DNA of 64,000 nucleotides from Vezdaea acicularis (Eukaryota): the NCBI GenBank assembly GCA_026025075.1, contig JAPEUI010000022.1, forward strand, positions 62,001 to 126,000, written 5' to 3'. Below are positions 50,279 through 56,661 of this stretch, piece by piece. The notes under the pieces were generated by a model. It was not told the origin of the DNA and did not search any database. It was given only the letters and a program-made list of their open reading frames with translations. How positions within the stretch are numbered: position 1 is the first letter of the stretch; every line of letters begins with the position of its first letter. The position numbers and the translations under genes were made by a program.

Positions 50279-53200
50279 ATGGCATCCGACACACGACCTG
50301 ATGACACACCCTATGTAACCCCAGATTCGAGCCCGCGGCAACATGATGAACCTCGCCAGGAGGGTCCGAACGATGAGGCCCCCATGCCTTCAAGCAATGA
50401 GAAGGATAAATCAGGCAATGCCTCGGGGCGGTCTCCGGAAAAGAAAGAGTCGGTGTTCAGAAGGGTATTGGGCAAACTCGGGCTGGATGCCCTAACGCTG
50501 GTGATGATGTTCAAGTACGTCGTCGGACATCTTCTCTGGGCAGAACGCGCTCCGATTGACCAATGATGCATCTAATAGGGCGACGATTCCGCCTGCCATC
50601 GCTCTTGCAATGTAAGAGCTCTATAATCACTGGTTGTCCTATAATCTGATATCATCACAGGGTCCAAAATAAGAAAGTTGCCGCTGTATATGGCAGTCTT
50701 GACTATCTCTTTGCCATAGTTTCAGTTGTATCCTTTCCCATCTTGCCACGAGCCCAATTTATTCAGCGATTGGTGTCAAATTTAGTAAGGAGGAACCCAA
50801 ATCGAAGCCCGTCGCGCGAGTCCAGCTGACACGCTGAAGATAGGTGTCTGCCTGGGTGCTGCTATTTCGCTGCTGGGTATTTACTGTGCTACGCAAGCTC
50901 GAGCTCACACCTCCAAACCTACGACAGGGGCTATTGTGTATAACCCAAGCCAGAGTGCAGTTTCTGCGATTTGGCTCTTTGCTTCTGTTTGGATCGCCAA
51001 CACGATAAGCGGCCCTCGCCCTCAGTTGATGTTTCCAGCCATCATTTACTCCATCTTCGTCACTGTTTGTTTGACAGCTGCACCCCAATTTTCGACCATG
51101 GCATTAGGTATAGCTTTTGTCAAGCGCGTTCTCAAGGCTTTCTTGAGTGGGCTCGGTCTTGGTACTTTTGTTTCGCTCCTCATATTCCCTTTGTCTTCTA
51201 GGCAGTTATACTTTAAAGAACTAGCCGCCCAGATTCAGGCGATCAAGGGAGCTATGAGGGCTCAGATTGCCTACAACCAGAGCCTGGAGCTCCCTAGTAT
51301 ATTTGATGCGGACTTAGTGAGTCCCGAAGCACAAAAGCTTAAAGCTGCTGTAGCGGGACTCAGTACACTTCTCGGAAAGGTACGCGCAGACTTGACGTTC
51401 GCGAAACGTGAGGTGGCTTATGGAAAATTATGTGGGGATGACCTTGGAGAGGTTGCGAGGATACTACGCAACGTTACTCTACCAATTCTCGGGATGAGTA
51501 CTCTAGCAGAAATCGTCAACAAGATTGCTGTCTCAAACGGCTGGAGACAAGAAAATGACAAGACGGCCCATTCCGAATATCTCAGTCGTTTGACAGTTAA
51601 TGAGTCAACAACGAAGGAGGATGTGATTGGAGAATTCAACGCAATGATGAAGATCCTTAGAGAGCCATTCGATACGGTCACAGGTTTCATGGAAGAGGGC
51701 TTAGAACACGCCTTAATTATTCTCGAACTTGGGGAGAAACCTAAGAAGGCCAAGAAGGCCAAACAAGCTAGCAAGTCCGCTGTGGACGACGATATTGAAG
51801 CTATCGGAAATGAACCAAGACCAGGTGATAAGGACTTCTTCAATTGGCTGCAAAACCGGGTACATAATTATCACCGTGACCGTGCTGTCCCTCTTCAAGA
51901 GTGGATCAAGCAAAAAGGGGTAGAAATCACTCCATCTGATCGAGTAAGTCAGACCATTAAGGAGCAGTAGAACTGTCCGGACGCTAATGCACCTAAAGAA
52001 TCAACGTCAGCTGTATACGATCCTCTATGTGAGTAACCTCTGTTCACCTCTCTAAGTTCGTCTGTCCTAAACCTTCCCTACCAAGATGGAGCACCTTGTG
52101 TTTTGTGCAGCAACGGCCACCCTTGACCTCGTTCGCTTTGCGGATCTGAAAGTTGAAAGTGGTTCAATGGAAAGAAACCGCATGATCCTCCCAGGATGGT
52201 TTGTCCTTATGAGATGGGCAAAGGCCGCCCTAAAAGCCCACGACCCCGAGTCGACAGAGCACGAAGACACCCAGGCTAGTCCTGAGTTCAACTCCGTGCT
52301 TATTGGGCAGTCTCTGAAGAAGAAGAAAGACCCCGAACGTCTTCCGCCAGCGACGGCTTGGGAGCGCTTTGGTAATAGCCTTCAGGTTTTCCCAAACTTC
52401 TTTGGGTCACCAGCTGCCGCCTTTGGACTACGTGTCGCGTGCGCTACATTAACGATTGGCATTGTGGCATACTTGCGCACGAGTGCGCGTTTCTTCGTTG
52501 AACAAAGGCTAATATGGGCTTTGATCATCATCACCATTAGCATGACTATGACTGCTGGCTCGAGCACTTTTGGCTTCTTCTGTCGAACCTTAGGCTCCTT
52601 CTTCGCGATGATATTTAGTATCACCAATTACTATATTGTGGACGGAAAGACAGGGTATGGCGCCCCCCGGTTCTCAAAGGCAGTCATCTCACTGACCTGC
52701 GCAGTGGCATCATTCCAATCTTGTGGCTGATCATATTCTGCGGTATGATAAATTTAATCATTAAACCGCCTCGGCTGCTGACCCTCGGGACAGAATTCTA
52801 TTTCGCTCTCAAGTACCCTCGCTTTGTCATAATGGTGATACTGACTATTGTCACCCACATTTTAATCATAGGGTAAGCCAATCCGATGAGCCTGCTATAC
52901 CAAACATCCATCTTAACCAAGCTGTACTGTAGATATCAACTTGAGAGCCGGCAACTGGGTCCCGCGCTGCAGAAAAGTAGCGGACAACCATACTACCCTA
53001 TATATGAGTTAGCTCCATACCGTCAGTCTGCGCAGTCCGCCTCCTCACTCTTAGCCACTGACTCTAGATCTCCTCAGGTCTGGCCACGGTCGCTGCCGGC
53101 TCCCTCGTAGCCTTCTTCTGGACGATCTTCCCCTACCCCGTGACGGCCCGCGCAGAGCTCCGCAAAGGCCTTGGCGCCTCACTCTACCTCCTCGCGCAAT

Positions 53201-54079
53201 TCTACTCTAACGTGCATGCCACTGTCGTCAGCAGGCTGGAGGGCACTGAAGGCAACCCTGACCTCAAAGAGAGCCCCGCCGCCATGCTGGAGAAGCAACG
53301 CACGAAGCTTCTGTCCAAGCTGCTAGTGCTACTCGACCAGCTGCGCGCCCACTCCTCCTTCACGAAGTGGGAACCTTCCCTCGGCGGCAAGTATCCGAAG
53401 GAACATTACGATGCCATCATCTCCAAAGTCTCAAAGTAAACGCTCGTTCTCCTTATGTTCCCCTTACCCAATTTAACTCCCAGACCTTCAAGTCCTCGGC
53501 AGGCGGCTGACACCCACAAACCTGCAGCATCCTTATCTACATGTCTCTCATCAGCTACTCTACCCGCTCCTTCATGGCCAACCGCAATGCCGAGCAATCC
53601 TGGATCAAAGACTTCTCGCACGTCATGGGACAAATCGGCCGCACCACACAGGGGATCTGCAGTACGCTCTCCGTGCTTTCCAACAGCATCGTGACTGGCC
53701 AAGCCCTCCCGCCCTATCTGTCCTTGCCGCCGCCGTATGAGTTGAGCGAACAGCTGCAAAGACTCGATCCACAGATCCTGAGCACCGCCCACGTCATAGA
53801 GCCCGGGTATGCTTCGTTTGCCGTCCTGCAGATCGCGACGACGCTGATCAATGATGATATGGAGAACCTGATCTGGTGAGTCTATCTACAGGCGGACGTG
53901 GTTTGGGGCTGTGGGCTAAAGGTTGGCGACGTAGGCATGTCAAGGCGCTGGTGGGCGAGGTGGACTTCTCCTTCAAGGTCGTTGGGCCGGATACGACAGC
54001 GCCCGCGGCGAGCGGGAACGAGTCATCTTCCAACGAGGATGTGGCAGGCGGCGTGGCTGGGAAACGCAAACACGCTTGA
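50279..54079 (+). CDS. Aromatic acid exporter (ArAE)/FUSC-like multi-TM transporter
   Basis: Many GT-AG introns. LGLDALTLVMMFKG, FAKREVAYGKL, KDPERLPP..WERFG, FGLRVACAT, QRLIWA, ELAPYRL, WEPSLGGKYP, LPPYL, LVGEVDFSF; two TM blocks. Confidence 0.85.
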
Positions 54080-54462
54080 ATAGACGATGGCGTTTCGGGT
54101 GGGGTTTTGGGTGGGTTTTTTGGGAGGACTTCAACCGTCATGAAGCTACGCCGTAGCCCCTACTTGATCAACATTCAGGGTTCCTCGATGAGGAGATGGC
54201 GGACTACATGAGGACCCATCTGTCACGAAAGATGAGGCAGACACGAAGTTGACCACAAGGAGGATACAGCGTAACCAAAGGAAAGGAAGAATAGAGAATA
54301 GATTGGGCGTACGCCAAAGCGGGTCCAGGAGTCCAGCCGCAGAGTCTTGGTGCAAATGATATCTCGTTCGTGATTAGCGGAACGCCCTTCAGTTCGCCGT
54401 TTGGCCGTTGGTGAATGCAGCTAGGCCGCTTGGAGCCCAAATACACTCACCATCCGTGGGTG

Positions 54463-55044
54463 AACTGAGACGCAAAAAGATCTATATCACGTGTATTTCC
54501 GATTATTCACGTGATTCGAGACTTTTTGCGTACGAGTTTCACCTCGATATAAGGATATCGTTGCATCCAGATTTTGCCTCATGTGGCAGGCTTATAAGGA
54601 TATATCCTTATACCATAATTGAGATACAAAAAGGGCTGCATCACGTGCGTACGTGCAATCTCACATGATAAATGACTTTTCGCGTGCGAGTTTTGATCTC
54701 GGAATGAGGATATATATCCCCTCCAAATCGGTGTTTGGGCCGACGGTGATACGGCGGTGATCAGCGACGACCAGCGGGATCGAATTGAGACGCCAAAAGC
54801 ACTATATCACGTGCATATGCAGCAGTCCACGTGATGCGGGACTTTTCGCGTAGGAGATAGACCTCGATATAACGATATCGCTGTATCCAGGTTTTGCCTC
54901 ACATGGCAGGCTTATAAGGATATCCTTATATCACAATTGAGACGCAAAAAGGACTGAATCACGCGCATATGCAGCGCCGCACGTGATTAGTAACTTTTCG
55001 CGTGCGAGTTTTGACCTCGTCGCGAGGATATATATCCTTATATC
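54463..55044. repeat. Higher-order array of four palindromic units (A-B-A-B, about 320-bp outer period)
   Basis: TGAGA unit starts at 54466, 54620, 54786 and 54938. 54463-54719 aligns with 54783-55037. Confidence 0.93.
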
Positions 55045-55385
55045 TAGGTATTGTGCCGTACGCGGCAGCACGAGTCAAAACAAGAGCCTCCCATGGCGAC
55101 AGGTAGCAGCGAGTCTCACTGAAGAAAAATAAGGCAGGAAGCAGGCATGCATTTGATTTGATGATTATTAATGTGACTAAGGTGATATGCTGGTGAATGA
55201 GGTGTATGTTTTGCAGTCATATTATACGGCAACTGGCAGATAGCCAAGAACCGTTCACTCCCCCACATTATTACCCCATTTTATCAGAACTCCAGGACAC
55301 CCCGATCCGTGAGCGCATGCCGCTCTATCCATCCAACAACCTAAGCCGCTCAGCCCTTCCCAAGTCCATCTCAGTATCCTATTCG

Positions 55386-56661
55386 TCAGTCCTTTCGCGG
55401 CTCAGATTCCACGCTGGCAATGCTACCGTCGGGCGTTGCGATGGAGGGAGGCGATGTGGCTACACTCGCACTAGGAGTGTATTGGAAGCCATCCGCGATT
55501 CCTACGTCCTCGGTTTCGCCGTCCTCATACGTAGGCGGATCTCCAAGGATGCTGCTACCCGCCTCGCTCCTATAGTCCGGTAACGAGTCGCTATACGGCC
55601 TCGCTCTTCCTTCCTCGGCTTGCACCAGATCAGACACGACATCTGCTGCTTGTCTCAACTGGCGGATCTCCTCTTGCATCACGCTTTCCAAGATGTCCTC
55701 TTGCCGGGAGACGTGGCAGGCCTTTTCGTGCCTGGGGGCAGTGCGATGGGGGCAGAAGCGATTGAAGAAGCTTTTCAACTTCTGGCGATAGGCGGCGCGT
55801 CGGTATGCTCGCCTGTTTCGGCGTTCTATACGGCGGGCCAGACGTTCTTGTAGCCGGCGGGGCGAACAGCAGCGGCGTGTGAAAAGGAGATAAACCACGT
55901 AGACGCCTATCACAAGGAAAAGTAGGCCAGGGATATGCCGGGCGAACCTAGAGTGGAGATGTCCCGGGCGATGTCGGTAAGGGAAAGGCATGCCATTAGG
56001 GAGACGTCCTGATGGTGAAAGATCATAGTCGCCATCCTTTTCAAAGGGGCGCTGGTGAGCCCCTAATGGACTTGGGCGTCCGTCGCACAAGAGATGATTG
56101 TGTTCAGGGGGCCCATAACCAAGGGAAAAGACGACTTTATGTATGGTTCCATGCATATGCTTGCCAATAGCTCCTAGCATACATTTAAAGCTCTTGTCGC
56201 ACTCCTTGAGCTCAGTCTTCAGCTCTTTCTCGTCCTCGCGCTCTTCGAGATCACCTTGACACTGTTGAGGTCGATGTTGGCGAAGTTCCTCTTCCTTCGC
56301 CCAGATTTGACATTGTAGCTCTAGAAGGGCTTCGCGCATGTTTTCCAATTCCCGGAGTTCAACTGCCATTTGGGGATCATCAATCTCGTCGTATTCGTCG
56401 TGATCTGCCGGAGGAAATTGTGGAGGAGGGATTTCGACGTAATCGTCATCGTCGAGGTCTGGGAGTGGTCCATAGTCCGGCCAGTCGGTGCCTGCTGTAC
56501 CAAGTCAGATCATCGCACAGCTACTTCATTCAGGGGCAAGGACACAAACTTGAGTCGACTGGCTTTGATGGCTCAGGTAACAGGTCTGATGGCGGAGATG
56601 CAGGGGTCGCAGCGGCCAGCGCTGAGCCCAGCCAGGCAAACGCAAGTAAGGACAAACGCAT
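55386..56661 (-). CDS. Type I membrane protein (signal peptide, coiled coil, His/Pro-rich, one TM, PY-motif tail)
   Basis: MRLSLLAFAWLGSALA signal; a phase-1 intron (GTTTGT..CTGAC..TACAG) joins in frame to ORF 55386-56369; TM IPGLLFLVIGVYVVYLLF; basic stretch; LPDY and PPTY. Confidence 0.85.

Follow-up and report, generated by a model that had tools for sequence, protein, structure and literature searches.

The array of palindromic modules in the window, by which we mean the whole 64-kb stretch of DNA analyzed here, is one locus of a genome-wide repeat family, and the earlier view of it as a feature of a single locus is not supported. We think it probable, if not strongly so, that the array is a copy of a repeat family, dispersed through the genome in the form of a short non-autonomous mobile unit, and that the family's four-box module is today retained as a platform for proteins on double-stranded DNA; the spread and the present retention are both read from the ends of the repeats, their pattern of conservation and a syntenic copy. 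The earlier note had offered two readings, a protein-binding platform and a mobile element; each of them holds in part, and the two are not exclusive.

The window array comprises four units, starting at 54466, 54620, 54786 and 54938 as previously described, and has the following layout:

51029..54079, + strand: left neighbor, an ArAE_2/FUSC-type transporter gene (PF10337 and PF13515) with its 3' end facing the array; the gene starts further upstream than 51029
54462..55044, unstranded: the array in full, in which a two-module unit of 320 bp is repeated head to tail about twice
54466..54531: module 1, type A; outer box 54470-54478, E-boxes 54488-54493 and 54508-54513, 14-nt spacer, inverted outer box 54523-54531
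54532..54619, unstranded: tail A, copy 1; absent from the other subfamilies examined
54620..54685: module 2, type B; outer box 54624-54632, E-boxes 54642-54647 and 54662-54667 (CACATG), inverted outer box 54677-54685
54686..54785, unstranded: tail B, copy 1
54786..54851: module 3, type A; outer box 54790-54798, E-boxes 54808-54813 and 54828-54833, inverted outer box 54843-54851
54852..54937, unstranded: tail A, copy 2; the part 54863-54902 is doubled in run X1
54938..55003: module 4, type B; outer box 54942-54950, E-boxes 54960-54965 (CACGCG) and 54980-54985, inverted outer box 54995-55003
55004..55044, unstranded: partial tail B, copy 2; the direct repeat ends here
55386..56369, - strand: right neighbor, a conserved hypothetical fungal gene of which this is the final coding stretch, with its 3' end facing the array

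The starts of the two E-boxes are 20 bp apart in all four units, and six of the eight boxes are perfect CACGTG, both as first reported. The A-B-A-B order is real, with 142 nt matching at 82% at a spacing of 320 and 118 nt at 79% at a spacing of 318, and TTTCGCGT is found in units 2-4, that is, in the three units claimed; its assignment as an MBF/SBF-type site is doubtful, however, since most outer boxes of the family do not retain CGCG. The 14-nt spacer does vary, but its first 9 nt are common to units 3 and 4, and the four spacers are thus not all independent. A profile built without the window modules scores the four at 43.6, 31.3, 38.8 and 27.1 bits, in order, and the next-best site in the window at 6.5 bits. 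The window holds no further such pairs at two or fewer mismatches over two 7-mers, and it has two exact pairs compared with a mean of 0.005 in shuffled windows (n=200). The array indeed lies between two gene 3' ends, with stops at 54079 (+) and 55386 (-); the right neighbor has 14 homologues at E<=1e-10 and matched no Pfam family.

Searched across the fungal genome assembly (18.9 Mb in 315 contigs), DNA similarity recovered only the window locus, and the dispersed copies came from motif and profile searches, to which alone the family is visible. The closest named match to a protein encoded in the window is labelled Vezdaea acicularis and is 95% identical. Exact CACGTG pairs 4-30 bp apart number 86 genome-wide versus 14 with a reversed-pattern control, and 59 of the 86 have a spacer of 14 nt (22 pairs) or 15 nt (37 pairs), lengths at which the reversed controls gave 0 and 0; a 4-nt spacer occurs six times, and the other spacings average about 0.8 each. 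The module that emerges is about 65 bp long and consists of an outer box, an E-box, a spacer, an E-box and an inverted outer box, with the consensus ACGCRAAAA, about 8 nt, TCACGTG, the spacer, CACGTGR, about 8 nt and TTTTYGYGT. In 435 kb of selected loci, the profile matched 83 times (61 above 25 bits) at 33 intergenic loci on 26 contigs, 18 of them holding several modules and the richest 16, all of these module and locus counts being lower bounds, with contigs C300 and C312 known from pattern matches alone. With both spacer classes taken together, the family comprises about 45 loci and about a hundred modules. The outer box starts 18 nt away from the E-box in 39 of 56 modules, a count that holds for each side, and the lengths of the left and right arm linkers correlate weakly (rho 0.25, p 0.06). 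The near-nucleosomal period proposed for the array is weak across the family, 31 of 37 start-to-start distances being 103-184 bp and the others longer.

The arrays are mostly co-oriented and have unrelated housekeeping genes with no common function as their neighbors. They form several subfamilies with unrelated tails and only the module in common, and the module is likewise all that the window array shares with the other subfamilies; local tandem and inverted duplications are centered on the modules. At three loci, on contigs C55, C119 and C160, perfect inverted duplications of about 100-330 bp are centered on or near modules, and a second palindromic motif, common to the three, adjoins modules (L026:4810-4990; L033:4830-4940; L036:1620-1730). 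No switch in base skew was consistent across 25 loci (p 0.09 and 0.16; a weak test), and ARAGORN called one tRNA among 37 loci, far from any module. On C250 near 28 kb (L040:4950-5010), what appears by eye to be a tRNA-like remnant, for which ARAGORN makes no call, abuts a single module. In collections of other organisms, one pattern matched singly 12 times in metagenome contigs, once in viral contigs and three times in prokaryote genomes, and a looser twin pattern gave 56 single matches in viral contigs; no locus in these collections had two matches, and the best profile score was 22 bits, but the collections are poor in fungi and may miss close relatives, so that no restriction to this lineage is implied. 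A literature search, with subscription journals and Repbase-type repeat libraries outside its scope, nowhere met such a family, which is apparently undescribed so far.

The spacing of the E-boxes falls into two classes. A mismatch search revealed, at about a dozen more loci, modules with the same outer boxes and a spacer of 4-5 nt, and a pattern anchored on the arms, with 2-9 nt permitted between the boxes, matched 39 times versus 9 in the control, with 4-5 nt in 34 of the 39 by manual count and in 25 of the 30 with loci by script, some modules having been matched from both arms. At 17 selected short-class loci, each of the 16 two-armed modules has a spacer of 4 or 5 nt, and when strict arms are required and any CANNTG box is accepted, 56 of 58 modules lie within the two classes, at loci preselected by such patterns. 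The E-box starts are thus 10-11 or 20-21 bp apart, equal to one or two helical turns. Many boxes of the short class are variants (CACATG, CAGGTG, CAGCTG, CATATG), which suggests either a looser constraint there or binding of another bHLH protein. On C1 at 151.8 kb (L017:4990-5015), one module has three E-boxes 10 bp apart and is possibly an intermediate between the short and long classes. The earlier identification of CDEI-type Cbf1 sites is borne out by the presence of RTCACRTG-type boxes and of a Cbf1 orthologue (E 1e-18, on C270), one of seven bHLH matches in the genome, which also encodes APSES and Ndt80-family proteins. A degenerate module (C270, near 71.7 kb; L178:998-1066) is found about 1 kb downstream of the orthologue gene. 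The motifs of the module resemble known fungal factor sites, and the outer box may fit an APSES or Ndt80-family protein. According to the excerpted account in PMC7229839, the cooperativity of yeast Cbf1p peaks at 11, 22, 32 and 41 bp with a period of 10.65 bp. The spacings of both our classes come close to these peaks; the 20-21 bp between the boxes of our long-class modules is 1-2 bp off its 22-bp peak, though distance may be defined differently there.

The boxes are far better conserved than the DNA around them. When arm pairs were located blind to the boxes, all 24 carried both boxes within one mismatch, and 41 of the 48 boxes were perfect. In an alignment of nine two-module elements, all but 2 of the 36 E-boxes are intact, whereas the identity of the spacers is 0.36-0.44, the linkers are near saturation, and the outer boxes and tail are at 0.61-0.77; CpG is kept at 36 of 36 positions in the boxes versus 89 of 170 outside. 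The two type A copies of the window behave alike, agreeing at 5 of 14 spacer positions against 50 of 60 in the tail (p ~1e-4 for these two), and at 8 of 8 in the boxes. Most loci were found through intact boxes, and the ascertainment is biased toward conservation; half or decayed modules do exist in some cases. All 11 exact matches to tail 13-mers and all 22 whole-element BLAST matches fall in known arrays, however, which argues that decayed copies are not the majority.

Four sequencing runs from three studies (X1, X3, X5 and X6) were compared over positions 52800-56600. X6, with flanks about 9% diverged, has modules at the same site, identical over 30 of 30 bases of the arm and first box and with a 14-nt spacer of altered sequence; 263 adjoining intergenic bases are replaced by 386 that cannot be aligned, and in the aligned array pieces, 21 of 199 bases differ, no better than in the gene-rich flanks. 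In X1, a close relative, two copies of 54863-54902 are separated by 320 extra bases, which probably make up two more modules, and the junction letters of X3 are as in X1. Either the copy number varies naturally, or the assembly of the window has collapsed at this place. X5 includes a portion of unit 1, and no empty site was seen in the four runs where covered. The protein-binding platform proposed for the array draws support from the spacer classes one turn apart, the intact boxes amid diverged linkers, the arms without covariation (see below) and the persistence in a relative; the nucleosome-length period is not supported.

The case for a mobile origin comes from a sister subfamily. Beyond the module, about eleven loci share their leader, their tail and a fixed 3' end, and in several copies of this main subfamily, where ends are recognizable, an AGCGCT-like hexamer stands at both of them. 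Two-module elements elsewhere measure 293-301 bp in three of four cases, close to the 320-bp period in the window. At C1:283k, one hexamer is common to two head-to-tail copies, and at C68, the joined flanks resemble one uninterrupted repeat of a resident foldback element at 22 of 30 bases, where controls at 1548 sites reach at most 16, as expected, in this one case, after an insertion that duplicated the hexamer. Judged by sequence, the fixed ends and the 6-bp repeat point to a mobile origin of the sister subfamily. The hexamer ends were not found around the window array, whose tails differ, and a mobile origin of its own subfamily would follow by extension. The suggestion that the modules are the termini of a mobile element therefore stands only in that the sister subfamily has defined ends; the modules themselves are internal, and the window array lacks those ends.

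None of the classes of element compared here fits the family fully. We found no terminal inverted repeats above about 10 bp, the ends having only a 6-7 bp palindrome in common, and none of the many near-identical dispersed copies of a MITE, the best matches between loci being 80-86% over at most 160 bp. Cryptons have short terminal direct repeats, of 4-6 bp, without terminal inverted repeats, as described in PMC3212892; this arrangement is seen in the main subfamily and is absent around the window array. The spacers, at 4-5 or 14-15 nt and unconserved, do not match a Crypton-type recombination site, in which arms of 11-13 bp enclose an overlap of 6-8 bp. The genome has two genes for DUF3435 tyrosine recombinases, similar to Starship captains (C108, L077/L080; C293, L078/L079), and one Helitron gene (C267, L163), all with internal stops that introns or decay may explain, and no modules lie near them (within the 3-4 kb loci for the DUF3435 genes). 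GCR1_C, NDC10_II and Phage_integrase gave no match, with the controls for the first two matching nothing either, no autonomous partner with matching ends was found, and no consistent CTRR of Helitron-type ends was seen by eye. Solo LTRs were rejected after comparison of six LTR-type repeats, whose common part is only a short repeated CCGCAG motif; matches to the leader motif elsewhere are Gypsy LTRs and solo LTRs without modules.

Some other repeats in the genome deserve a record. Contigs C79 (L083:616-8841) and C106 (L082:782-8867) carry Gypsy-type retrotransposons with identical or near-identical LTR pairs of 378 and 269 bp; among these, one integrase has a chromodomain and one LTR family a single GTCACGTGAC site. 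On C82, a 1.66-kb foldback element (L029:3492-5153) is inserted beside the local array, 17 bp away from its first module; the element has an AT-rich core, inverted arms of about 420 bp with many AGCGCT repeats, and a target duplication of 8 bp that is hAT-like, and parts of it recur at L041:1-601 and L073:1-135. An inverted-repeat element of about 270 bp (L031:3578-3849, L025:4953-5191, L037:146-329, L084:6247-6510, L077:319-590) is inserted within or alongside three module arrays and occurs in other places as well, among them the neighborhood of a DUF3435 gene.

Several explanations compete with the one that we favor. The array could belong to a selfish non-autonomous element whose module is the cis-site for its own copying or integration, bound by a recombinase or transposase complex with Cbf1 as a host bending factor; its boxes would look conserved because only intact modules get copied, with no need on the part of the host. 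We regard this as a possible but minority reading. It is well served by the defined ends, the 6-bp repeat and the head-to-tail copies with one common hexamer, as in the Cryptons excerpted from PMC3212892, by the subfamilies that share the module alone, by the local duplications centered on modules and the varying array length between samples, and by the presence of the recombinase and Helitron genes, stops included. It sits badly, however, with the want of young dispersed copies, one segmental duplication excepted, of empty sites in the runs, of modules near those genes and of domain matches (subject to the two silent controls), as well as with spacers that misfit the 6-8 nt overlap of simple recombinase sites. 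A bolder view, to which we give a smaller though real chance, is that the module is a sequence-defined, self-copying chromosomal site of a type so far undescribed among filamentous ascomycetes, a eukaryotic counterpart of the baculovirus hrs, in which a phased four-part complex would start replication or site-specific recombination and the module would copy itself along with adjoining DNA; this would explain why the tails are many and unrelated, why duplications occur in both tandem and inverted form, and why the two spacer classes differ by one turn.

The remaining alternatives are less likely. Clustered Cbf1 and MBF/Ndt80-type sites might simply regulate the neighboring genes; the factors are encoded in the genome, the motifs resemble fungal factor sites, and some arrays lie 5' of a gene (BMS1, UTP13, RPS21), but the neighbors are functionally unrelated, the 14 loci oriented by eye are convergent in six cases, tandem in seven and divergent in one, and the window array is more than 1.3 kb from the nearest 5' coding end, making ordinary transcriptional control unlikely. 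No better is the chance that the arrays are neutral minisatellite remnants with boxes that survive through shielding by protein from mutation or through search bias: the ascertainment through intact boxes, the 0.61-0.77 identity of outer boxes and tails, compatible with neutral decay, and the presence of DNA methylases would suit it, but box-blind detection still yields intact boxes, the tail and element matches stay within known arrays, and the spacer length is held in two classes despite saturation of the sequence. Short sequence-defined centromeres with CDEI-like Cbf1 sites appear improbable: the RTCACRTG-type sites, the Cbf1 orthologue and the 18 multi-module loci, set beside about 19 telomere tracts and so at least about 10 chromosomes, invite the idea (TTAGGG tracts at 17 contig ends, from 113 overlapping matches or about six per tract), but there is no AT-rich core for one nucleosome (G+C 0.41-0.55 at 25 loci; spacers of 4-15 nt), several loci share a contig (three on C1, two on C24), and HP1, DNA methylases and AT-rich, LTR-rich islands are present as expected for regional centromeres. 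A search for Ndc10 of CBF3 gave no PF16787 match, and its control matched nothing either. Most improbable of all, we think, are structured RNA or single-stranded DNA hairpins, such as a microRNA-like cluster, a ribozyme repeat or an attC/REP-like site. Every module can be folded, one strand folds better in 53 of 63 through G-U pairs, the arrays are mostly co-oriented, and the outermost arm positions pair at 0.436 versus 0.368 in a swapped control. Against this, the linkers pair at 0.279 versus 0.256 +/- 0.020 with arms swapped between modules, the folding energy is -26.5 versus -25.8 kcal/mol in the arm-swapped control, RNAalifold retains just six E-box pairs with a covariation term of -0.01 and no compensatory change, Rfam gave no match, and a hairpin gives no reason for a loop in two sizes 10 nt apart; arms without covariation make a hairpin RNA unlikely. 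Four further likenesses were set aside by informal comparison: the yeast ACS, as the arms face outward; the V(D)J RSS, as the nonamer orientation is wrong; the integron attC, which needs covariation; and hammerhead retrozymes, as no CUGANGA core was seen.

Returning to the mobile unit retained as a protein platform, we envisage that two bHLH dimers, most likely of Cbf1, would bind in phase on the two E-boxes, with a second factor, for which APSES and Ndt80-family proteins are candidates, on the outer box about 18 bp from each E-box. The resulting complex of about 65 bp would bend the DNA and exclude a nucleosome, and tandem modules would create an open intergenic patch that might act as a chromatin boundary or anchor, or as a site promoting replication or recombination. 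As a rough division, a boundary or open-chromatin anchor is a tentative first choice for this downstream job, an origin- or hr-like site somewhat less likely, and anything else unlikely. The model predicts that binding tolerates a 10-bp change of the spacer but not one of 5 bp. With about a hundred modules and just two spacer classes, the family provides a natural example of helical-phase constraint, and it suggests that a mobile repeat has turned into a phased transcription-factor platform in a little-studied fungal lineage with a small genome. Origins, boundaries and recombination sites of filamentous ascomycetes are generally not defined by sequence; if the arrays are any of these, they would offer a rare sequence-defined handle on the function of their chromosomes.

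We file the array as a repeat-borne and, we believe, selectively kept factor-binding array; its features either contradict or fall short of what would place it among centromeres, MITEs, Cryptons, solo LTRs or structured RNAs. Five systems come closest, each compared here on excerpts of its description. Paired Cbf1p promoter sites of budding yeast (PMC7229839) share the two CACGTG boxes and a cooperativity in helical phase, with peaks at 11 and 22 bp, and the protein has its orthologue here; our modules differ in setting the pair within a four-box dyad of fixed form, which recurs in tandem at about 45 loci, often flanked by the 3' ends of genes, and the neighboring genes have no function in common. 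The baculovirus hrs (PMC4535591), which function as origin and enhancer, are likewise dispersed loci with a variable number of repeats of about 65 bp that hold an imperfect palindrome, but they are viral and have one short palindrome per repeat as far as excerpted, and kinship in sequence was judged by motif scans of viral contigs alone, which gave single matches at chance level. Cryptons and other tyrosine-recombinase elements (PMC3212892) resemble the main subfamily in the 6-bp end repeats without terminal inverted repeats and in tandem copies compatible with a circular intermediate; on our side, no autonomous partner was found, the window array lacks those ends, the spacers are unlike recombinase overlaps in length, and the boxes have been preserved much better than the other parts. 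Point and proto-point centromeres (PMC13017519) offer Cbf1 sites of mobile-element origin, conserved boxes and a fast-changing spacer of fixed length, whereas our arrays lack an AT-rich core and CDEIII, occur at several loci per contig and have LTR homology limited to the short CCGCAG. The major repeat sequence of Candida albicans (PMC6896093), finally, consists of dispersed, length-variable and recombination-prone arrays of 80-170 bp subunits with a common short sequence, and its function, too, is unclear; it differs in taking up about 50 kb per locus at nine loci, with a 2-kb unit, and the excerpt describes no twin E-box module. By analogy, the family would work most like phased Cbf1 pairs and is laid out like the baculovirus hrs or the major repeat sequence of C. 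albicans.
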